Positions 185 to 50,127 of a stretch of 64,000 nt of DNA are shown here, piece by piece. A model generated the notes under the pieces. It made no database searches. It saw only the letters and a list, made by a program, of their open reading frames with translations, and was not told the DNA's origin. The position numbers were made by a program, and so were the translations under genes. Within the stretch, counting starts at the first letter, position 1. The number at the start of each line of letters is the position of its first letter. The stretch is from the NCBI GenBank assembly GCA_964628055.1, contig CAZVNL010000004.1:7209-71208 (forward strand). The letters run 5' to 3'. The DNA is from an uncultured bacterium (GTDB lineage Bacteria > Fidelibacterota > Marinisomatia > Marinisomatales > TCS56).

Positions 185-1870
185 CTATTTTATCACTAGC
201 AGTTTGCGCACGGCACTCCCGGAGGAGGTGATCATTCGATAGAAATAGATTCCTGAGCTCACTGCCTGGCTATCCCAGACCACCTGGTACTTCCCGGGTG
301 GATAATATCCTTGAAGGAGCGCCTCCACTTGTTCACCCTTAAGGTTGTAGATGACAATCTTGGTGGTTGTAGCTTGTGTTAGCCTAAAGGGGATGACTGT
401 CGTTGCGTTGCAGGGGTTGGGGTAGTTCTGGTCCAGGTGGAAAAAATCGGGGAGGGTAATGACTGACTGGGGAGTTACTAAGGTCGACCGAACCTCGAAG
501 ATGAGCACTCCCACGGGACCGGCGGTGTTTTCATCATCAACGGCATGAAACCATAGGGTATCCGATCCCGTGAAACCTGCAGTGGGAGTGTAGCGGAATT
601 TTCGTTTTCGGGCGCCATATTGGTGAAACGTCCCGTGCTGAGGTATGGTGTCAAGCACGAACCAGAAAATAGCTCCATCGGAATCCTGACCAGTAAATTC
701 CCCCCGGTAAAGGGAATCCTGGAGTACTTCGATTGTTTGGGTGTTGACCAGGGGGGCCTGGTTGGGAGTCCCGTCATAGAGAAAATCCTGCTGAGCAAGG
801 AGATCGTTGTTGCGGTAGATTTTTATTGTCCAATCACCATAATAGTTAGACGTGACTGGTAAGACCCACCAAATATACCACCAGCTACTGGGATAGGTTG
901 TCCCTGGAGAAAAGGTATAGGAATTCCAGAGGCTTCCTTGATAGTAAAATTTCCAGGTCAACTGATCGTTGGTGTGAGCATTACGCAGACGTAACCAGGA
1001 GTACAGGGTGTCTCCCGCCGTAATATGGGTCTTGGTCGGAGGTCGTTCGCAAACCAAGGCCCAGGAAAGGGGCAATGTGGTAAGGCCGTGGGACATGAGT
1101 TGGAAGGGCAAGTTGAGGATGTAATCCGGTTGTTGGGCCCAGCGGGAAGAGTCTGTTTGGCACGGTCCCTGGTAGAGGTCCAGGATCGTGTTATGGTTTA
1201 CTTCAAAGTGTAGGTGAGGGCCGGAAGAGAAGCCTGAACTCCCCACCAGGCCCAGGGTATCTCCCACGGTGACTGAATCTCCCACGGCTACCCGGACAGA
1301 GTTCTTACGCATGTGCCAGTACCAGGCCTCCGAGCCGTCTGGATGCTGCACAATGACGCCATTGGCTTGGACACCGTTAACCCAGGCTGTCCTCCGGTCG
1401 AACTCCCCGTCGTGACGGTAAACCACGTAACCGGAAGCAGCGCTGAGAACGGGAATTCCTTCGTCCATGTCGTAGAAATCCAGAAGTTCAATGTCCGTAC
1501 CCTGATGGCCGTCGTAGGTAACGGATCCGCAGGTATAATCCAGAAGGTTATCACTAGGTGACCAGTCCACATAATTCACGGTGGTTTTACCGGGAGAGTT
1601 GATCCCCCCGCCCCCTAAAGGGTCTTCGAAGAGATAGTCTTGGCGTGGATTAGGTTCTATGGCGCCATAGGCGTGGATTTGTTGCCTCACCAGGTCGTAT
1701 TGGCTGGGGGAAATGCAGTGGTCATGTGGTGTCCGCCCCCCGCCATGGCCGCCTCCCACTACCAACGTTGGGAGCAATACCCCCGTCACCAAAAAGTGTA
1801 AAAAGCAACTCAAAGTCGAATATAGAAACCTACTTTTGGATGACCTTTTTAAACGAATTGTGAAATTCAT
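185..1870 (-). CDS. secreted M23 family metallopeptidase with Ig-like domain and T9SS C-terminal sorting domain
   Basis: 561-aa ORF with an N-terminal hydrophobic signal. M23 motifs are present (YDGHQGTDIE, GSSGFSSGPHLHFEV). An Ig/cadherin-like segment lies near aa 380-470. The C-terminal ~70 aa ends GIYFYRMITSSGSAVRKLLVIK, which is typical of T9SS type-A CTDs. Confidence 0.85.
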   Translation of the reverse strand: MNFTIRLKRSSKSRFLYSTLSCFLHFLVTGVLLPTLVVGGGHGGGRTPHDHCISPSQYDLVRQQIHAYGAIEPNPRQDYLFEDPLGGGGINSPGKTTVNYVDWSPSDNLLDYTCGSVTYDGHQGTDIELLDFYDMDEGIPVLSAASGYVVYRHDGEFDRRTAWVNGVQANGVIVQHPDGSEAWYWHMRKNSVRVAVGDSVTVGDTLGLVGSSGFSSGPHLHFEVNHNTILDLYQGPCQTDSSRWAQQPDYILNLPFQLMSHGLTTLPLSWALVCERPPTKTHITAGDTLYSWLRLRNAHTNDQLTWKFYYQGSLWNSYTFSPGTTYPSSWWYIWWVLPVTSNYYGDWTIKIYRNNDLLAQQDFLYDGTPNQAPLVNTQTIEVLQDSLYRGEFTGQDSDGAIFWFVLDTIPQHGTFHQYGARKRKFRYTPTAGFTGSDTLWFHAVDDENTAGPVGVLIFEVRSTLVTPQSVITLPDFFHLDQNYPNPCNATTVIPFRLTQATTTKIVIYNLKGEQVEALLQGYYPPGKYQVVWDSQAVSSGIYFYRMITSSGSAVRKLLVIK

Positions 1871-1979
1871 TGTTATATTATCACAAAGTGCAAGGAAGGT
1901 TTTTTTCAGCTTACCATTTTCATAGAATCTTTGTAGGTTTAATGGTTGTATCGTTCTCTATTTGAAGTTGGAGGTATGT

Positions 1980-2480
1980 ATGAAAAGAATCTTAAACATT
2001 ACGGCCCTGTTGAGCGGCGCCTTGTGGATGTCTTGTACTACCATGTCCTTTCTTCCCCGGGAAGGTACGGTTTCCAAGTTTAATTTGGCTACTGTAGAAT
2101 ATGTACAGACAGTGAACCAAACCCAACGGGAAACCATGGCACAGGAATTATTCGATCAACTTGATCCCATGCTGGACTCCCTGTTAGCAGGTGACCGGGA
2201 GACTGTGCAGCAATTAGCCACCCTGGTCTCGGAACAGGAAAAAAAGCTCACCACGCTCTCAGCCGAAATGGACAGTACTGAAGCTAATGTCCTTAAAGTC
2301 TCCAGCAAGATGCTTCGGGACCTGGCGGACTTGCGTTCGGCTAACACCAACATGCAACTATACATTGACCAGTTAAAAGGTAACCTGGAGAGCCTTCCGT
2401 TGAACATGTTGCGGGAGCTCAACACCGCCATTGAGCAGTATATCCAGGCCAACAACCCCTCTGAGACGACTACTGAATAA
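1980..2480 (+). CDS. hypothetical coiled-coil lipoprotein
   Basis: ATG at 1980 lies 5 nt after GGAGG (1970-1974). The signal peptide MKRILNITALLSGALWMSC has a lipobox-like Cys. The rest is helical and Gln/Leu-rich. The ORF-track start at 1962 (TTG) is less likely. Confidence 0.6.
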   Translation: MKRILNITALLSGALWMSCTTMSFLPREGTVSKFNLATVEYVQTVNQTQRETMAQELFDQLDPMLDSLLAGDRETVQQLATLVSEQEKKLTTLSAEMDSTEANVLKVSSKMLRDLADLRSANTNMQLYIDQLKGNLESLPLNMLRELNTAIEQYIQANNPSETTTE

Positions 2481-2679
2481 GACCTTTTACCACTTTTTTG
2501 CTGTACTGAGAATAACCGGCGGTACAGTTTTAAGCAGATTCGGTTTTCAGGGGGGAATCAAACGGTAGTTAGTTGTGGGGAACAGGTCATAACGCCATCA
2601 TTCCATTTTTCGTTCTTTTGTCATTAATACGACTTCCCCATTTCAACGGGTACTGTTAGGCGATATTCGTTTTCGTTTA

Positions 2680-3300
2680 GTGCGTAATGGAGATTCCCGG
2701 CGGCGCTACATCTGGATACACGGGGATGAAGACACGGCTCGACGGGCGCTCGATCACCATCTCCAAACCGCTAGAGGGTGGGCTTTTTATATCGAGAGTT
2801 CCACCCGCGAGGTATCCTTTGGTGATGGTCGGATTGACCCCAACCGCATGTTCAGTCGCTCGGGAGCGGTGAGTGATTTTCTCCGCTGTAACCCCCAGTG
2901 GACGCCTGCTTACTTAGCAACCCAACTGAATTTACTCGACGAGGCTCGAGAAACCTTTTTAAACCTTCTGTTGCCACCGCCGGGGGGACTTTTAGTCTCG
3001 GTTCATAACAATTCCCAGGGGTATTCGTTGGAGACCGAACGGGATAAAAGTCAGGCCCAGGTGGTGAGGAGCGGTGTCGATCTCCATGACTTCTTCCTTT
3101 GTGTGGCTGAAAAAGATTTCGCCATTTTACAGGATTCCCCTTACAATGTTATTCTCCAGGCGAAGAATATTGAGGATGACGGTTCCCTCTCCTGCCTGGC
3201 TGCCCGGCGAGGGGTTCGCTATGTGAATTGCGAAGTGTCTTTAGGGAATCTTGCCCGGCAACAGGCAATGTTGGCCTATCTTGATGAGCATTTAGACTAA
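2680..3300 (+). CDS. hypothetical protein, possible zinc-hydrolase-like (IHGDE ... DPNRMF ... SVHNN motifs)
   Basis: 206-aa ORF with a GTG start. The motif pattern loosely recalls AstE/AspA or M14-like hydrolases, but I cannot place it in a family. Confidence 0.45.
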   Translation: MRNGDSRRRYIWIHGDEDTARRALDHHLQTARGWAFYIESSTREVSFGDGRIDPNRMFSRSGAVSDFLRCNPQWTPAYLATQLNLLDEARETFLNLLLPPPGGLLVSVHNNSQGYSLETERDKSQAQVVRSGVDLHDFFLCVAEKDFAILQDSPYNVILQAKNIEDDGSLSCLAARRGVRYVNCEVSLGNLARQQAMLAYLDEHLD

Positions 3301-3316
3301 AACTTTAATCCTAAGC

Positions 3317-3799
3317 TCAGTTTCCCCTGGTTGCCTTTCTCTGAGAAGAGCGCCAGTAAAAGAGTAGAACCAGCCCGGCGAGATTAGGAAACCAGACCAA
3401 TGGATGTGACCAGGGAACCCCGGAGAAGGTGACGGAAGAGAGGGGCCAGAGGAATTTTGTGGGGAAAAAGGCCCGGGTGTGGAAGGGGAGATCTAACAGA
3501 ATGTGGAATGGCCAGGCCAACAGCGGAAAAACGAGCGGTTTTTTCCACCTCCACACGCACACTAACAGTAAAGAGACAACCAATAGACTATGGGTTAAAT
3601 CATAGACCCAAAGCAACCAGGTTGGCAATGTATCTAACGGGGGCGGTCCGAATTTTAAAGGTCCTTGAAACAACCGAAAAGGAAGGTAGAGACCAAAGGA
3701 GACTAAATCGGGGAAGGCGCCCCAAAAGGTTGCCCACCAGGGGTGTCCACGGTAGCCAAACAGACCCCGCCCCCATAAAGCGTGACTTAACGTATCCAC
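3317..3799 (-). CDS. membrane-bound metal-dependent hydrolase, YdjM/DUF457-like
   Basis: 160 aa and multi-TM. The N-terminus MDTLSHALWG and the His-rich C-terminal TM segment (PFHILLDLPFH) are typical of DUF457. Confidence 0.7.
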   Translation of the reverse strand: MDTLSHALWGRGLFGYRGHPWWATFWGAFPDLVSFGLYLPFRLFQGPLKFGPPPLDTLPTWLLWVYDLTHSLLVVSLLLVCVWRWKKPLVFPLLAWPFHILLDLPFHTRAFFPTKFLWPLSSVTFSGVPWSHPLVWFPNLAGLVLLFYWRSSQRKATRGN

Positions 3800-3949
3800 A
3801 AATGGTTACCCAGTCGCACAGGTTGTAGACTTAGTCAACGACAAAATAAGTCTTTTAACAGCGAATCGCCTAGAATATTTTTCCCCAGAAATTGAAATTC
3901 AATGTAGTTTTCTAATTGGTAAATACCTAAAAGACAGGAGGTGTTACGC

Positions 3950-4153
3950 ATGTTATCTGGTACCGTTAAAGAATGGGATCGTGATAAGGGTTACGGTTTC
4001 ATCGAAGGGGAGGATGGGAATGATTATTTTGTCCATATTTCGGGATTAAGACCACAATTGAAGCAACGGGGATTACTCCCGGGACAGAAGGTGTTGTTCG
4101 ATGTGGATTTTGATATGAAAGGGGACAAGGCCATTAATGTACGCCCTTCTTAG
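3950..4153 (+). CDS. csp: cold-shock domain protein (CspA family)
   Basis: AGGAGG at 3936-3941 lies 8 nt before ATG 3950. The sequence GTVKEWDRDKGYGFIEGEDGNDYFVHISGL contains the RNP1 and RNP2 motifs. A ~140-nt AT-rich leader lies upstream. Confidence 0.9.
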   Translation: MLSGTVKEWDRDKGYGFIEGEDGNDYFVHISGLRPQLKQRGLLPGQKVLFDVDFDMKGDKAINVRPS

Positions 4154-4203
4154 TGTCATTTACCGGTTTGGTAATATAACCGATCGTTACGGGTTTTAAG
4201 GCT

Positions 4204-5394
4204 TTAATAGAAGAACTGCTGTATATCATAGACGGCTACCTTCACACCGGGAGCGGAAACGTCACGAAAGGCGTGTTTTAATTCATTGGCCATGCGGCGA
4301 ATTTCCAGACGCGTAGGGGGTTGGATCTGCCGCTCCGTGAGGACTTGGACATATTCCGGGTTGGTCTCGTAGAATTCGGAGACGTAGATGATGTCTCCCT
4401 GAGTGAGGGGCATTTTGCTCACCAATTGCGTTGAGGCCTCCCGATGGTGTTTGTGGAACGCTTTCCCCCCCGCCCCTGCTAAAAAGATCACCCCGATGGC
4501 CAACCCGCCCGCTTTGAGTTTTTCCGTGAGCGTGAGGATTGCCTCCAATGATTGGGGCTTATTCAGCAGAGCCAGGAGGTCGGGATCACCAGACTCCACA
4601 CCTAAATAGACCCTTTTCACTCCCCACTCTTTCAACTGGGAGAAGTTATAGGCGCTTTTTTTGATTCCCGTGAATACGTCGATGAATGAAAATATAGGCC
4701 TGGCAGGTAGCTCTGCCCGGATTTGGCGGAGAATGGGAAGCAGTTTTCGCTGAGGGATTACTAGGGCATTGGCATCGGCCAGGAAAATGCTGCGGCGCAA
4801 ACGCACGCCGGCTCCTAAAAAGTCCTTTACTGCGTCTACGTGGTGGGCTACCTCCGCTAAAGGTTTGATGCGGAATGGGCGATCCCGGTAAAAGTTGCAG
4901 AAAGTGCACCGGTTGTAGTTACACCCCTCTGTGATCTGTAACACCAGGGCTAAATACTGGTCGGGCGGCAAGATGGAGATAGGACGGTAAAGGTCGTGGA
5001 AATGTTGTTCCTCTACTTGTAAACGTTCCGGTGTCCAGCGTAGGATTTGATCCACAGCGGACTTGAAAACTTCTGGCAGATGCGAGAATTCTTGCCGGAG
5101 TAGCCCTGCACAACGTTTGATCAGTTCCCAACCATCGCGTTCAGGTAAAGGTTCTACGGCGCGGAATGTTTCCCCCGCCTCACTCCAACGGGACTTCTTG
5201 AAAAAGCGATTGTCCAGGGTGCGGCGATAGTTCACCCCCTCCACGTACATCCCTACCAGACGCCCTTCCCAATCGAATGTCCACAGGTTGTTGGCTGGTG
5301 TATTAAAAATATTGATGACCTGTGCTTTCAAGGTGAGAAGTACTTCTCGCTGATGGTCTAAAGGGAATTTGTACTGCTGGATTGGCGGTTTCAT
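4204..5394 (-). CDS. radical SAM domain protein with non-canonical CX4CX2C cluster motif
   Basis: The motif LQITEGCNYNRCTFCNFY was verified by translating 4945-4880. A GVESG-type strand follows. I start the gene at ATG 5394 (MKPPIQQYKF). The 519-aa ORF-track version extends into the M48 gene and is rejected. Confidence 0.8.
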   Translation of the reverse strand: MKPPIQQYKFPLDHQREVLLTLKAQVINIFNTPANNLWTFDWEGRLVGMYVEGVNYRRTLDNRFFKKSRWSEAGETFRAVEPLPERDGWELIKRCAGLLRQEFSHLPEVFKSAVDQILRWTPERLQVEEQHFHDLYRPISILPPDQYLALVLQITEGCNYNRCTFCNFYRDRPFRIKPLAEVAHHVDAVKDFLGAGVRLRRSIFLADANALVIPQRKLLPILRQIRAELPARPIFSFIDVFTGIKKSAYNFSQLKEWGVKRVYLGVESGDPDLLALLNKPQSLEAILTLTEKLKAGGLAIGVIFLAGAGGKAFHKHHREASTQLVSKMPLTQGDIIYVSEFYETNPEYVQVLTERQIQPPTRLEIRRMANELKHAFRDVSAPGVKVAVYDIQQFFY

Positions 5395-5444
5395 TAGCAA
5401 AAAGCGTAGCTGGTTGTGGTCATAAAATGGTATGCGGGTTACTA

Positions 5445-6596
5445 TCAGACTTCCATCTGAGATTCGGCCAGGGCCAGGCGCTCCCCAATGGGTGGATGGG
5501 AGTAATACAACACTTTCACCCACCAGACAGGGTAGGCGTTGGAGAGGTTGCGATTGGCCAAGCCGGCTAAGGCTGCTTGGAAGGCTTCTTTCTGGGGAAT
5601 GAGTCGTAGGGCGGTTCGGTCGGCTTGGCGTTCCCAGTAGCGCGCCAGGGCGTGGCTGAGGGGACCCAACACGAACCCGGAAAGGAAACTGAACAGGAGA
5701 ATGAAGACGGGGAAGAGGGTGAGATTCCAGCGGGTATTTTCTAAGAAGTAGGGCCAACCCCAACGCAGGACCCGATCCAGGACGAAGAAAACCACCAGTT
5801 GTTGCAAAGACCCGATGAGGATTTGTTTGGTAAGGTGGTGGTGTTCATAATGCCCTACTTCGTGGGCGATGATGGATTCGATTTCCGGAATACTCATGTG
5901 CGCCAGGAGATTATCAGCTAGCACCACCCTCCGGGTTTCCCCCAGTCCCGCTAAAAAAGCGTTCTCCTTCTTTGTTTGGCGGCTCATATCCTCTTTGAAA
6001 AAGCCACTGGGTCGCAATCCCCCTTTCCTGAGGAGTTTTTCCAGGCGCTGGGTTAAATCTTGATCGTCGATTGGTTCGTATTTATTGAAAATGGGCAGGA
6101 TTACCACGGGGGCCAGGGTTGTCAATAGAACCCCAACGACGATAGAGGCTAAACTGGTGAGCCACCACCAGTGAAGGGGATAGACCGCCATGATCCAAAA
6201 CAACAATCCCACCAGCAAAAGCGATAGGACCAGTCCAACCAGGTAACCCTTGAGTTGTTCAAGTAGCCAGGAGGCCACGGTATGGTTGGAGAAATGCCAC
6301 TTGTGTTCATGGATATATCCGCTGTAGTACCTGAGCGGGAAAGTTACCAAAGTGGCCAGGGTTAGGAGAACGAGCAAGTAGAAAACCACGGTCATGGCCA
6401 TGGTGGAACCGAAACGGAGTTGGGTCAGGTAAGCGCTAAATCCGCTGGCGTAGAACATCAGTAAAAATAGTAACGACAAGAGAAAACCGGCGAGCCCCAG
6501 GAGACGTTTCTCTTTTTCATACTGCTGGGCCTGCCTTTGCTTCTCTTCGTCTAACAAGGGATGGATTGAAGGATTTTTCGTGGTTTTTTCGTGCAT
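5445..6596 (-). CDS. M48 family (Ste24/HtpX-like) integral membrane zinc metalloprotease
   Basis: 383 aa with multiple TM helices. The HEXXH motif is HEVGHYEHHH, and a C-terminal SHPPIGERL motif is present. Confidence 0.9.
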   Translation of the reverse strand: MHEKTTKNPSIHPLLDEEKQRQAQQYEKEKRLLGLAGFLLSLLFLLMFYASGFSAYLTQLRFGSTMAMTVVFYLLVLLTLATLVTFPLRYYSGYIHEHKWHFSNHTVASWLLEQLKGYLVGLVLSLLLVGLLFWIMAVYPLHWWWLTSLASIVVGVLLTTLAPVVILPIFNKYEPIDDQDLTQRLEKLLRKGGLRPSGFFKEDMSRQTKKENAFLAGLGETRRVVLADNLLAHMSIPEIESIIAHEVGHYEHHHLTKQILIGSLQQLVVFFVLDRVLRWGWPYFLENTRWNLTLFPVFILLFSFLSGFVLGPLSHALARYWERQADRTALRLIPQKEAFQAALAGLANRNLSNAYPVWWVKVLYYSHPPIGERLALAESQMEV

Positions 6597-10391: not shown

Positions 10392-11933
10392 ATGAAGCCT
10401 ACCATTGATTTAGGGATAAAACGGTGGTGGTTGCCGCTCCTGGGATTATTAACCGTTTCCGTTTGGACGACTTCCTGTGCCCATTGGGGACCCCCACCCC
10501 CCACAAAAGAGGCTCGCGCCGTGTGGATCTCTCGCTTTGAATATTGCGAATATTCCCCAACCCGCGACCAGGATTCCATCCGTAGCTATATTGCTAATGC
10601 CATCGATAAAGCTGCCCAGGCCAATTTCAACATGGTCTTTTTCCAGGTCCGGGGTAACGGGGACGCCTACTACACGCCCGGTCGGGAACCGTGGGGCAGT
10701 TTGCTCACCGATACGTTGGGGAAAGATCCCGGCTGGGACCCCCTGGCCTTTGCCCTGGAGCGGGCCCACGCCCGGGGACTGGAATTACATGCCTGGATCA
10801 ACGCCTTCCCCGTCTGGCGCGGGAGTGAACCACCCCCAGAAACCAAGCCGCGCTCCCCTTACCTAAAGCATCCCGAATGGCTCGTCTGCGATATTGCCGG
10901 GACGCCCCAACCCCTGTCCGAGCATTATGTTTCGTTCTCACCGGGCATACCGGCTGTCCACGATTACATTATCGACGTAGTAAAAGACATTGTCCAACGG
11001 TACGACGTGGATGGCATTCATTTCGACTATGTTCGCTACCCGGAAAAGTCGCCGGAAAAAGGTTTTTCCCACGATTCCATCAGCGTGGCCCGCTTCAATT
11101 CCCAGGAAGGAAATCCCTATCGTTTAGAGTGGGAGGACTGGCAACGGGAACAGCTCAACCAGTTTGTCTATCGAGCCTATAATGAACTTACTACCCTGAA
11201 ACCGGAGTTGAAAGTCTCCGCAGCCGTCATTGGTAGTTACAACGAGGGAGGGTGGAACGCCTATTACAGTGTCTATCAGGATCCCCGGCGCTGGGTGGAA
11301 TTAGGCAAGCTGGATTTCATCACCCCCATGATGTACTGGCCCCGGCGGCATCCGGATTATCCCTTTGCTACGTTGGCCGAAAAATGGCAGGAGCAACTAC
11401 CCCCAGAACGCTACGTCTTCCCTGGAATTGGCACTTACCGCTACACCAGCCGGAAACGGAATTATAACTGGCGGGAAGCCCTGGCACAAGTTGACGTGGT
11501 ACGATCCCACCAGCTACCTGGGCTAGTCTTTTTTGGCTCCCGCAGCCTAACTGATCGGTGGGAAAATCTACGCGAACAGCGCTTTACTAATCGGGCTAAT
11601 ATCCCTGCCATGGCCTGGAAAGACAGTCTGCCTCCCGAACCACCTGCCAACTTGCGGATTGAACCGCAAAAAGCAGGGGTTGCTCTCATGTGGACTCCCT
11701 CGGCCAGTATTGATGTACGTCGTTATAATATTTACGTTGGCCAAGGACCTAAGGTAATGAACAAGACCAGGTGGCGTTTAGCGGCGGTTACGCCGGGACC
11801 CGTGTCTGCTTATACTTTATCCAGGACACAACTGGGCACAAGCCGGTACATCGCCATCTCGGCCCTGGATGCCGCCTGGAATGAAAGTGACTTGATCGGG
11901 GCTGTCTCGATTAGAGGGCAGACAAGAAAATAG
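10392..11933 (+). CDS. glycoside hydrolase-like family 10 (GHL10/YngK-like) lipoprotein with C-terminal FN3-like domain
   Basis: ATG 10392 (MKPTIDLG...) gives a signal with Cys (WTTSCAHW). Motifs FFQVRGNGDAYY, LELHAWINAF and GIHFDYVRYP are present. Confidence 0.8.
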   Translation: MKPTIDLGIKRWWLPLLGLLTVSVWTTSCAHWGPPPPTKEARAVWISRFEYCEYSPTRDQDSIRSYIANAIDKAAQANFNMVFFQVRGNGDAYYTPGREPWGSLLTDTLGKDPGWDPLAFALERAHARGLELHAWINAFPVWRGSEPPPETKPRSPYLKHPEWLVCDIAGTPQPLSEHYVSFSPGIPAVHDYIIDVVKDIVQRYDVDGIHFDYVRYPEKSPEKGFSHDSISVARFNSQEGNPYRLEWEDWQREQLNQFVYRAYNELTTLKPELKVSAAVIGSYNEGGWNAYYSVYQDPRRWVELGKLDFITPMMYWPRRHPDYPFATLAEKWQEQLPPERYVFPGIGTYRYTSRKRNYNWREALAQVDVVRSHQLPGLVFFGSRSLTDRWENLREQRFTNRANIPAMAWKDSLPPEPPANLRIEPQKAGVALMWTPSASIDVRRYNIYVGQGPKVMNKTRWRLAAVTPGPVSAYTLSRTQLGTSRYIAISALDAAWNESDLIGAVSIRGQTRK

Positions 11934-12091
11934 TACTTTAATTATCGTTACCATGCAAAGTATTAAAAGGTTATAGTCTATTTAATTGTCAGCTGGTAAA
12001 GTTCAAAAAGTACTGTAAAATGATTCAACCGGCACCCTTTCGGTTTTGGTACTCATTTTCCCAACGTTGACCGGTAAGTTCAAACTCCGGA

Positions 12092-12262
12092 TTAAGGTAC
12101 GGCTGATACAGTCGTTCCCATTTCGTAAGGATGTCGCTTACTATGGGAAAGAATGCAGCGCCGGATCCGATGGACATAAACCTGTTCGGCGTCCCGGCTG
12201 TAATGGTTGATACGAATTATATCGCCGACCTTGCTGAACAATTGGGGTGGATTTAGCCCACC
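12092..12262 (-). pseudogene. fragment of a tyrosine recombinase, integron-integrase-like N-terminal SAM-like domain
   Basis: My hand translation gives GGLNPPQLFSKVGDIIRINHYSRDAEQVYVHRIRRCILSHSKRHPYEMGTTVSAVP*. This matches the IntI/XerD-like N-terminal pattern as I recall it (..IR..[19 protein letters not shown]..LG). There is no start codon, it is truncated after ~55 codons, and no catalytic domain follows in any frame. Confidence 0.6.
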
Positions 12263-12476
12263 TTTTATTACATTATATTTTTACATTCTGATTCGTATGG
12301 TACTAACTTCCGCTGGGGTTTAATTTACGGGAGAATGTAACCAATATTAATAGTTAAGGGTAAAGAAGGGGTAAAGACAAAGCCAATAGCTGTATAATAC
12401 CGGAGGCGTATGAAGAGAAGGCGTGATATAGCGCAGCAATTAGGCAGCCTAATTGTAGTTAACGGGAATTCATCGC

Positions 12477-13063
12477 ATGGCCAATGAGATAATATCGTAT
12501 CTTGAGATGTGTCAACGAGAGGGTGCTAGCTTACAGCAAGGCATGAATTTCGGACTTGGAGGCAATCACTCCTTCCGAATGCACCCTACGAAGATGAGAT
12601 TCAAGATGGTGGCACCGTTCTCATCTATGAGGGCCACGACAAACCTCGAAGCCGGAGAGTGCCCGACCCGAAGCGTGTTGACCAACCACGACATTCTCCC
12701 ATTGGCTCCCTAACTCAAAATGGCCTCTTTTATGATGCTGCTATAGAGGCTAGGGCGGGTTCTCGTCCACCAGAACTTGTTCGAGTTTACGAAAAGATAA
12801 GACAGGGCATATGGTCGTATAACGGGGTCTTTCATCTTATTGACGCTTGGCAGCAGGTTTCTAATGGGCGCAAAGTATTTAAGTTCAAGCTTGTAGCGAT
12901 AGAAGGTGAGGAAGATCTCGACAGGCCTGTTCGTCGGGATGCCCTGCGAACATTTGGCTATTTGATTATTTCACCCGACGGGATCGGGGTTAGAAATTCA
13001 TTCATGGTTTTAATTAAAATTCATCCGGTATCCCCATCTTGCATCTATTTGACTATTATTTAA
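12477..13063 (+). pseudogene. frameshifted and 3'-truncated HNH-endonuclease-family gene (N-terminal domain only)
   Basis: Frame 1 reads MANEIISYLEMCQREGASLQQGMNFGLGGNHS. A shift near 12575 then continues as NAPYEDEIQDGGTVLIYEGHDKPRSRRVPDPKRVDQP...GSLTQNGLFYDAA...PPELVRVYEKIRQGIWSYNGVFHLIDAW...KVFKFKLV. Family-like sequence stops near 12945 and no HNH motif follows. Confidence 0.6.
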
Positions 13064-13157
13064 CTTCGTTTAACACTTTAAGCCATAAAGTAGTAAACGG
13101 TGAAGAACATATCATTCATTCTCAATAAATCCAGTTTACCGACGGTGGGTTGATTAG

Positions 13158-13231
13158 TACCCCCAGCAGGACTCGAACCTGCAACCTACGGCTTAGAAGG
13201 CCGTTGCTCTTTCCCGTTGAGCTATGGGGGC
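13158..13231 (-). tRNA. tRNA-Arg (anticodon UCU)
   Basis: Hand-folded 74-nt cloverleaf: GCCCCCA TA GCTC AACGGGAAA GAGC A ACGGC CTTCTAA GCCGT AGGTT GCAGG TTCGAGT CCTGC TGGGGGT A. The T-loop is GTTCGAGTC. CCA is not encoded. Pair 1:72 is G-U. Confidence 0.9.
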
Positions 13232-13320
13232 TTGAGGTAGAAAAAGGTGGTAGAAATTAGCGCATTAACACCGTGTAAGGGAATAAATGAATGGGCTTGA
13301 TGGTTTGTGGTCTATCCCTG

Positions 13321-13348
13321 TTTTCTCGACGGAAGATCGTCGAGAAAA
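13321..13348. promoter_or_regulatory. perfect 11-bp inverted repeat (TTTTCTCGACG-N6-CGTCGAGAAAA) abutting a sigma70-like promoter
   Basis: The palindrome lies 3 nt upstream of TTGACA (13352-13357). After 18 nt comes TACACT (13376-13381). A related half-site TCGACGAGA sits at 13384-13392. The palindrome lies in the divergent region between tRNA-Arg and the small ORF. It has no trailing U-run on either strand, so it is not a terminator. Confidence 0.45.
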
Positions 13349-13436
13349 ATCTTGACATTAAAGCCCTGCCGGTGGTACACTTGTCGACGAGAGACAAAGT
13401 TTATTTACAACCACACAACTATAAAGGAGGTCTTTA

Positions 13437-13664
13437 ATGGCTGAAGTTGTAAAAACCACAGGAATCACCAAAGAGAGTGGTTATCTATATTACCTCGGTA
13501 AAGACGGTAACGTCTGGCGTTCCAAGATGGCCCGCGCCGGTAAAGGCGGTGGGAATGCCGAAAAGGTCGCCTACGCTGGCGTCCAGCGGGAAGCCGGGTA
13601 TCTGTACTTCATCGATAAGAGTGGGAATGTCGCCCGCGCCAAGATGGCTCGCGGTCGGAAGTAA
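13437..13664 (+). CDS. small basic protein with two tandem ~30-aa repeats, uncharacterised
   Basis: AAAGGAGG lies 7 nt before the ATG. Repeat 1 is KESGYLYYLGKDGNVWRSKMARAGKGG and repeat 2 is REAGYLYFIDKSGNVARAKMARGRK. A terminator follows immediately. Confidence 0.7.
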   Translation: MAEVVKTTGITKESGYLYYLGKDGNVWRSKMARAGKGGGNAEKVAYAGVQREAGYLYFIDKSGNVARAKMARGRK

Positions 13665-49443: not shown

Positions 49444-50127
49444 TTATTTTAAAAGTTGGGCCAGGGGTTTGACCGCCCCTGCAACGCATTTATCCACGGC
49501 ATTGGAAAGGCTCAACGCATTATACCAATAACTGTTTGACCAGATGACCTCTCCTGTGGTTTTGTCCAACATTTGTAGGGTAAGTCCTACGCGGGAGTCC
49601 ACATACTCTACTTGTTGGGTTTCGGTAATTGAGCCTTTCTTTACGGTGGTCGTTTCGGTGGTTGTGGTTGTGTGGGTGATTTCCTTTCCCCCCTCCTGGC
49701 TTGCAACAACCACCGGTTCTTCCACGGTTTCCACAGTCGTCACCGTGCTGCCTTTATCTTTGGTGACGATAGGAATGACGATGACATTTCCGTCGGTATA
49801 TTCGGTAATGGTCGCCAGGAGAAAAACATCACTGGTGGTAAGGTTCAGGGATTCTGAGTCCTTGAGCAATCCCGATTGAGTAAGGATGACTTCATTGGCA
49901 ATGACTCCCAAATCTTCACGCTCTACGACGTTAAACCCCATGCGCAGCAGATGGTGTATGATGCTACGGGTTACGATTTTCCCGGAACCTGGAAAAGAGT
50001 TAAAATCCGGTGTGTGGGCCACGGCTATAGATTTTAACTGGGAGAAGTCGTAACCAGGTTTAATAACTAAAGGTGGTTGGCAGGCTACCAATAAGAGGCT
50101 TAGCCCAAAAAGAGTAGACCGGCCCAT
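49444..50127 (-). CDS. CsgG/LpoB-like lipoprotein with Thr-rich insert
   Basis: Signal plus lipobox (LLLVACQ). The segment GKIVTRSIIHHLLRMGFNVVEREDLGVIANEVILTQSGLL recalls the CsgG-family core. An HTTTTTETTTV low-complexity insert is present. The C-terminus contains LDKTTGEVIWS. Confidence 0.55.
   Translation of the reverse strand: MGRSTLFGLSLLLVACQPPLVIKPGYDFSQLKSIAVAHTPDFNSFPGSGKIVTRSIIHHLLRMGFNVVEREDLGVIANEVILTQSGLLKDSESLNLTTSDVFLLATITEYTDGNVIVIPIVTKDKGSTVTTVETVEEPVVVASQEGGKEITHTTTTTETTTVKKGSITETQQVEYVDSRVGLTLQMLDKTTGEVIWSNSYWYNALSLSNAVDKCVAGAVKPLAQLLK

Follow-up and report, generated by a model that had tools for sequence, protein, structure and literature searches.

The interval considered here lies between a GHL10-family gene and a tRNA-Arg gene in a stretch of 64,000 nucleotides (the window) from an uncultured bacterium (GenBank assembly GCA_964628055.1, contig CAZVNL010000004.1), and the question is whether it holds what is left of an integron. 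The GHL10-family gene (PF02638), with its stop at 11933, bounds the interval on one side; on the other lies tRNA-Arg(TCT), at 13157-13231 on the minus strand. Across 11934-13156 the G+C content is 43.3%, compared with 50.7% in the whole window and about 53-54% in the flanking genes, and the list of open reading frames (ORFs) contains only short ORFs there and no intact gene, as the first-pass annotation of this DNA had described. Every feature that it reported is in fact present, either where it had been placed or a few bases away. In the annotation of the Joint Genome Institute (JGI), where the window is part of contig KVRMV2_100036887 (81.7 kb) of metagenome 3300002231, the interval has two ORFs, of 37 and 134 aa, both of which are by-products of the wreckage, and the tRNA is the sole Rfam match. 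Two broken genes make up the recognizable part of the interval: an N-terminal stub of an intI pseudogene on the minus strand (12092-12262) and, on the plus strand (12477-12949), a pseudogene of an SRA-HNH modification-dependent (type IV) restriction endonuclease. They are divergent and 214 nt apart, close to the 215 bp previously noted, with core-like boxes between them.

The integrase stub was recognized with PF13495, TIGR02249, tblastn and phmmer. Its minus-strand reading, ...LFSKVGDIIRINHYSRDAEQVYVHRIRRCILSHSKRHPYEMGTTVSAVP*, has its stop codon at 12092-12094 and contains the segment LFSKVGDIIRINHYSRDAEQVYVHRIRRCILSHSKRHPYEMG, which the first-pass annotation had quoted and likened to the N-terminal domain of integron integrases. 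Profile searches bear out this likeness: the stub matches Pfam PF13495 with E=3e-5 and NCBIfam TIGR02249/PRK15417 with E=1.2e-5, the latter over positions 3-44 of the 315 in the model. The homologous part extends over 12113-12247, about 44 residues, and similarity ends after ...RHPYEMG. Downstream, homology continues in no frame, and neither the catalytic domain, whose lack had been noticed before, nor the IntI-specific insertion was found; a tblastn search with full IntI revealed no second integrase fragment in the 64 kb. The earlier statement that the fragment has no start codon holds for ATG and GTG, and the frame is closed by a stop immediately upstream; the one possible start is a TTG at 12241.

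When the stub was compared with hidden Markov models of tyrosine recombinases, as had been proposed, integron-integrase models were the sole recombinase models in NCBIfam to match; those of XerC and XerD gave no match at E<=1. An exhaustive phmmer search of 1.84 billion representatives yielded 2220 matches at E<=1e-3. TIGR02249 was the best model for 19 of the 19 stub relatives tested, and its curated cut-off was passed by P0122 and P0242, the two relatives that keep enough protein. Residues 35-78 of the Aminiphilus-type IntI described below align to the stub with 43% identity (tblastn). The top phmmer match, P0121 (E=5.7e-13), was rejected as spurious, a galectin-repeat protein whose eight weak stretches had been summed, and a word-index protein search with a 62-aa fragment gave no match, there being no three 5-residue words in common. 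Since the nearest relatives are integron integrases, it was concluded that the stub represents the first 44 or so codons of an intI gene; judged by its matches, the recombinase remnant is of the integron-integrase lineage and not of the Xer or phage type. Two further observations concern the relatives themselves. Several integron integrases (P0122-P0130) match the 44-residue N-terminal fragment twice, which suggests that their N-terminal SAM-like segment has been duplicated, and P0136, P0138, P0146 and others match the integrase model over its first 42-53 positions only.

Once the frame of the second pseudogene is repaired, its reading is 79% identical (E about 1e-81) to intact 229-aa proteins with SAD_SRA and HNH domains, a family with 5418 database matches. 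A DNA alignment places a 19-nt deletion between 12571 and 12572, which shifts the frame and interrupts the SRA domain; the frameshift had been suspected near 12575. Homology ends at 12949, corresponding to residue 164 of 229, such that codons 165-229 are lost, in agreement with the earlier impression that similarity disappears near 12945, ahead of any HNH motif. That motif, which in the homologues is recognized by PF01844 with 34 bits, is absent from the window copy. Without HNH and with a shifted frame, the window copy cannot act as a nuclease.

What the intact family does can be approached through its predicted structure (predicted local distance difference test, pLDDT, 86.6). The family scores 29.4 bits on SAD_SRA, just below the Pfam cut-off of 30.7 bits. 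In Foldseek, the best match of the family model in the Protein Data Bank is TagI (6GHS; E=1.2e-8, 246 aligned columns), followed by SRA domains bound to methylated DNA; the SRA domain of SUVH5 and UHRF1 are also matched, the E values, TagI included, ranging from 1e-8 to 1e-4. TagI was not reached by sequence search at E<=1, even with a profile of the family, and PADLOC has no specific model for SRA-HNH proteins and returned only weak HNH matches. TagI is described as an SRA-HNH modification-dependent restriction endonuclease (Kisiala et al. 2018, as cited through PMC12707154). It shares the architecture of the family, in which an SRA-like domain for binding modified cytosine makes up the N-terminal part and an HNH nuclease the C-terminal part. 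The family protein, with 229 aa, is shorter than the matched 6GHS chain of 285 residues. The family is predicted to bind modified cytosine through its SRA-like domain, and the fold suggests that cleavage would depend on 5-methylcytosine or 5-hydroxymethylcytosine.

The SRA-HNH gene family is a bona fide integron cassette elsewhere. In the closest homologues GTTAGGC(AG) precedes the ATG by 15-16 nt, and hairpin-folding sites of the form GCCTAAC...55-110 nt...GTTRRRY follow the stop codon by 5-12 nt; the core sites named in the first-pass annotation, GTTAGGC upstream and GCCTAAC downstream, are exactly those of the homologous cassettes. The 5' boundary reads GTTAGGCAG in comparison loci L002-5, L007, L011 and L037, GTGAGGCAG in L008 and GTCAGGCAG in L009. 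Fourteen attC sites could be aligned, with compensatory changes in their stems, and a covariance model built from these 14 sites, when applied to 81 comparison loci, found 44 sites, of which 43 share the strand of the gene. Many of the sites lie outside the training set and form arrays, as in L025 (11 sites), L063 (10), L054, L009, L083 and L072. In contigs fetched later, the gene is flanked on either side by sites of 60-65 bits (L127 and L128) or has such sites upstream (L129 and L130). Altogether, attC flanks the gene in L006-L009, L011, L020, L025, L034, L054, L063, L065, L072, L083 and L127-L130, and in a Sumerlaeia metagenome-assembled genome (MAG) attC sites separate the gene from a C-terminal fragment of IntI that lies upstream of it. 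The window copy keeps only the 5' boundary motif.

A further comparison is with Aminiphilus circumscriptus (JAFY01000002.1; L002) and the contigs L003-L005, whose SRA-HNH cassette is 77% identical in protein sequence to the window copy. In these Aminiphilus-type loci an integrase with a TIGR02249 score of 493 bits (cut-off 265) stands 190-210 bp away from the cassette. The order in Aminiphilus (L002, 6574-9518) is an HTH_17 gene, a co-oriented intI, the SRA-HNH cassette with its attC, and an insertion sequence (IS) fragment. GTTAGGCAG precedes the ATG, and the cassette and attC are intact, unlike in the window. The intI of the Aminiphilus genome has likewise been inactivated: compared with metagenome contig L003, it is frameshifted.

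Some of the loci examined for the cassette are of interest in themselves. Long arrays that include the SRA-HNH cassette were seen in L025 (330-6364) and L063 (1392-11752), with no integrase within the fetched 6-kb flanks; they are candidates for attC clusters that have no integron integrase (CALIN) or for sedentary integrons. In L072, a contig of a Bathyarchaeia MAG (JAWBOR010000124.1), the gene is located within an array of three attC-like sites (1185-5795), which is either an archaeal integron cassette array or the result of a binning error.

Between the two pseudogenes of the window, possible traces of such boundaries can be discerned. A perfect palindrome of 9+1+9 nt, CAATTAGGC-A-GCCTAATTG, occupies 12437-12455; the first-pass annotation had rightly seen a palindrome there but had confined it to 12438-12454. 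Its left arm contains ATTAGGCAG (12439-12447), which is the cassette boundary GTTAGGCAG with one G-to-A change, and its right arm contains GCCTAAT (12447), which resembles an inverse core site. A second core-like box, GTTAACG (12458-12464, plus strand), lies 12 nt before the ATG and offers an alternative old recombination point; in a MAFFT alignment it falls opposite the GTTAGGC region of L002 and L007. The boxes ATTAGGC (12439), GCCTAAT (12447) and GTTAACG (12458) each deviate from the GTTRRRY-type consensus. Five such palindromes are present in the window whereas 4.9 are expected, and the chance of meeting one in 1.2 kb is about 0.08; as a palindrome alone it is therefore not statistically special. 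The chance of TTAGGCAG occurring within 100 nt is about 0.002, as estimated from 100/4^8. As a candidate trace of attI, ATTAGGCAG can be compared only with the boundary of homologous cassettes, there being no general attI model.

The region between the integrase stub and the palindrome (12263-12436), with about 39% G+C, is assigned by its position to the former intergenic region of intI and the cassette. The intI promoter and attI would have lain within it, position again being the basis, and it has one core-like box, GTTAAGG, at 12353. A scan of 12092-12476 with the sigma-70 consensus, which may not be that of the host, revealed no plus-strand site. An attC-like inverted repeat of 57 nt with GTCCAAC...GTTGGGT ends, at 49564-49620 and thus remote from the interval, was dismissed as a chance occurrence; it lies inside a 227-aa ORF and has E=3.2 with the covariance model.

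Taken together, these observations are best explained by the first-pass proposal of a dead integron platform: with a probability of roughly 85%, the interval is the non-functional remnant of an integron platform and its first cassette. The proposal draws support from the relatives of the integrase stub, from the cassette nature of the gene family and from the occurrence of IntI beside a copy of the cassette that is 77% identical. In the original state, intI on the minus strand would have been transcribed away from the attI site, the SRA-HNH cassette would have been inserted at attI through IntI-mediated attI x attC recombination, and the platform promoter would have driven its expression. One deletion took intI from about codon 59 on, and with it the IntI-specific insertion and the entire catalytic domain; another took codons 165-229 of the cassette together with attC and anything beyond; and the internal 19-nt deletion threw the SRA domain out of frame. 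The lesions themselves are read directly from the DNA; their order we infer. No recombination-competent or enzymatically competent part remains.

The remnant is also not a product of assembly. NODE_22 of ERZ4201062, which was assembled independently, agrees with the window to 99.84% over 12.4 kb and differs within 11934-13231 at one position, 12040, and three further strain variants keep the same 134-aa ORF. From the near-identity of the independent assembly and the shared ORF it follows that the remnant is real and inherited within the population.

Several points weigh against the assignment to an integron platform. The window has no attC: the best match of the covariance model, with filters off, has E=1.5, and a pattern search of 11800-13300 found no RYYYAAC...GTTRRRY pair. 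The core-like site precedes the ATG by 31 nt, versus 15-16 nt in the homologous cassettes, and this distance, together with the second candidate GTTAACG, makes the old crossover point ambiguous. Some 44 residues have to carry the identification of the stub, and they belong to a SAM-like domain that also occurs in other tyrosine recombinases; with the catalytic residues and the IntI-specific insertion gone, neither can be inspected. Where an integron integrase stands beside the cassette, in L002-L005, the two genes are co-oriented, whereas in the window they are divergent. About 65 of the 81 genomes carry the SRA-HNH gene without a detectable attC or IntI and with no recurrent neighbour, and no closer relative with an intact version of the locus was found.

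Among the other explanations the strongest, although unlikely, is a decayed genomic island that targeted the tRNA gene, in which the recombinase fragment would come from an integrase of the island itself that inserted it at the tRNA-Arg 3' end, with the SRA-HNH gene as cargo. The relic does flank the tRNA gene at its 3' side, its AT content exceeds that of the genome, and the content of this flank differs between relatives. The order tRNA-Arg(TCT)-p75-p2xx-Omp85 is conserved in L118 (84% identity) and L122 (61% identity). Past the tRNA 3' end, L118 (1-181) encodes the C-terminus of a type I restriction HsdR protein (PF11867, E=1.5e-23), and L122 (3286-8468) encodes a 229-aa unknown protein and a mercury-resistance cluster, merR-merT-merA-thioredoxin-DsbD; similarity between the window and L118 is lost about 25-45 nt past the tRNA 3' end. 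The differing content and the loss of similarity mark the tRNA flank as a variable spot. An island of this kind should have left a repeat of the tRNA 3' end, and the old att site for which the first-pass annotation had suggested searching did not materialize: with up to 3 mismatches allowed in 20-22 nt, the 64 kb contain no second copy, only repeats at chance level. Moreover, the fragment fits integron-integrase models and relatives and not the integrases of phages or integrative and conjugative elements (ICE). Its distance from the tRNA is about 900 bp and the cassette stands between the two, which is the layout of an integron, whereas the integrase of an island usually adjoins att, and the cargo gene has integron core sites in other genomes. 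Nothing observed speaks specifically for an island. The two explanations are not exclusive, since an integron could have been brought in inside an island.

Contig breaks at the tRNA in L119-L121 were initially a candidate for strain variability at this spot. They were rejected as ordinary assembly breaks because L134 and L135 show the intact arrangement in the same sample and a co-occurring relative shares the tRNA. On the GHL10 side, synteny was uninformative, as 31 metagenome loci with at most 62% identity included none with a shared neighbour or the tRNA.

Still less probable is that the locus is not dead and that the 134-aa ORF (12659-13063) is expressed and has been kept as a free-standing protein that reads or binds modified cytosine, or that serves as a decoy. 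The ORF consists of the SRA domain's C-terminal two thirds followed by a new tail, it was called as a gene by JGI, and it is open and of the same length in five variants or assemblies, with two to three amino-acid differences and no stops. These variants are only 1-2% diverged, however, and at this distance chance alone would leave the frame intact. The ORF starts at 12659, equivalent to family residue 62; in the model, roughly 150 residues make up the SRA fold, and about the first 61 of these are thereby lost. The final 37 residues of the ORF are unrelated, and its GTG start has no evident ribosome-binding context. It matches no Pfam family at E<=0.001, the sole match being SAD_SRA with 16 bits against the cut-off of 30.7 bits. 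If the ORF were nevertheless functional, it would represent domestication of a cassette fragment after the death of the integron.

Hardly credible, finally, is an accidental juxtaposition in which a lone cassette, arriving at a secondary site or by another route, came to lie beside an unrelated scrap of a tyrosine recombinase without there ever having been a platform: most SRA-HNH homologues do occur singly, in unrelated contexts and with no nearby IntI, and cassettes are documented to insert at secondary sites (PMC4889954), but here both pieces are integron parts, they stand in platform layout, pointing away from each other across 214 nt that include core-like boxes, what survives of intI is its extreme N-terminus, on the side of the cassette, which is what a distal deletion would leave, and the search with full IntI found no other integrase fragment in the 64 kb.

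The remainder of the interval fits around the platform remnant without adding recognizable features. The AT-rich spacer from the GHL10 stop to the integrase stub (11934-12091) has no Pfam or NCBIfam match and no DNA similarity to any comparison locus; a 50-aa ORF on the minus strand that overlaps it (12025-12177) likewise matches neither database. At the other end, AT-rich DNA without homology (12950-13110) stands in place of the 3' third of the cassette and its attC, and provides the unrelated tail of the 134-aa ORF. The following stretch, 13111-13156, can be aligned with the 84%-identity relative L118 and is regarded as native tRNA flank, its boundary being approximate. When the flanking DNA was compared with 85 loci, similarity was limited to the coding region 12476-12942. 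The GHL10 product has no identical sequence on record in exact-sequence look-ups. Judged by its BamA/Omp85 homologues, the host falls near Marinimicrobia/Fidelibacterota, in the FCB (Fibrobacteres-Chlorobi-Bacteroidetes) group, and named relatives are only 45-50% identical.

Beyond the tRNA, two observations may be recorded. Between tRNA-Arg and p75, at 13321-13381, a perfect hairpin, TTTTCTCGACG-GAAGAT-CGTCGAGAAAA, directly precedes a promoter-like TTGACA-18-TACACT. This stretch is essentially invariant in L118 (84% identity) while the nearby spacer varies, and the hairpin may be a regulatory element for p75. The 75-aa protein encoded at 13437-13664 contains two internal repeats (GYLY[YF].(G)KDGNVWRSKMARAGKGG-like), belongs to no Pfam family and adjoins tRNA-Arg(TCT) in every relative examined.

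Pseudogenes of intI and degraded integrons have been documented before (PMC4889954, Cury et al. 2016; 10.1101/2025.06.18.660453, Xanthomonas). The degenerate chromosomal integrons of Xanthomonas and those known from the CALIN context resemble the window locus in that intI has been inactivated by deletion next to a decaying cassette, and in being chromosomal and vertically inherited within a population. The window locus has decayed further than these, with no attC and only about 44 intI codons left. It fits none of the categories of IntegronFinder, which are the complete integron, In0 and CALIN (Cury et al. 2016), and it would be missed by the pseudogene screen of the same study because that screen uses a profile of the IntI C-terminus. 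The literature searched contains no report of integrons in Marinimicrobia/Fidelibacterota.

The cassette, too, has precedents. PF01844 and PF14279, the families recognized on intact homologues of the window cassette, appear in a list of integron-associated functions that are frequent in metagenomes (Buongermino Pereira et al. 2020, PMC7370490), and integrons are known to carry phage-defence cassettes (bioRxiv 10.1101/2024.07.02.601719). The window cassette would share the defence function of the cassettes in these two surveys. The latter are intact cassettes in arrays, whereas the window holds a single broken copy with no attC.

Decayed integrons and HNH-endonuclease cassettes both have precedents. 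The current understanding of integrons is unchanged by the present locus. It is, however, a concrete case of integron decay that has proceeded beyond the visibility of standard tools, with neither attC nor the IntI C-terminus left. The 3' flank of tRNA-Arg(UCU) emerges as a variable, defence-rich spot in this lineage, which is a modest addition; it could be a hot spot for defence genes, supplied by an integron in one strain and by a type I restriction system in another. The comparison loci show that one SRA-HNH restriction gene circulates as a cassette through many bacterial phyla and a Bathyarchaeia MAG, at 60-90% protein identity. For the organism itself, the remnant indicates that an integron was once resident in the chromosome of an uncultured Marinimicrobia/Fidelibacterota-like bacterium.

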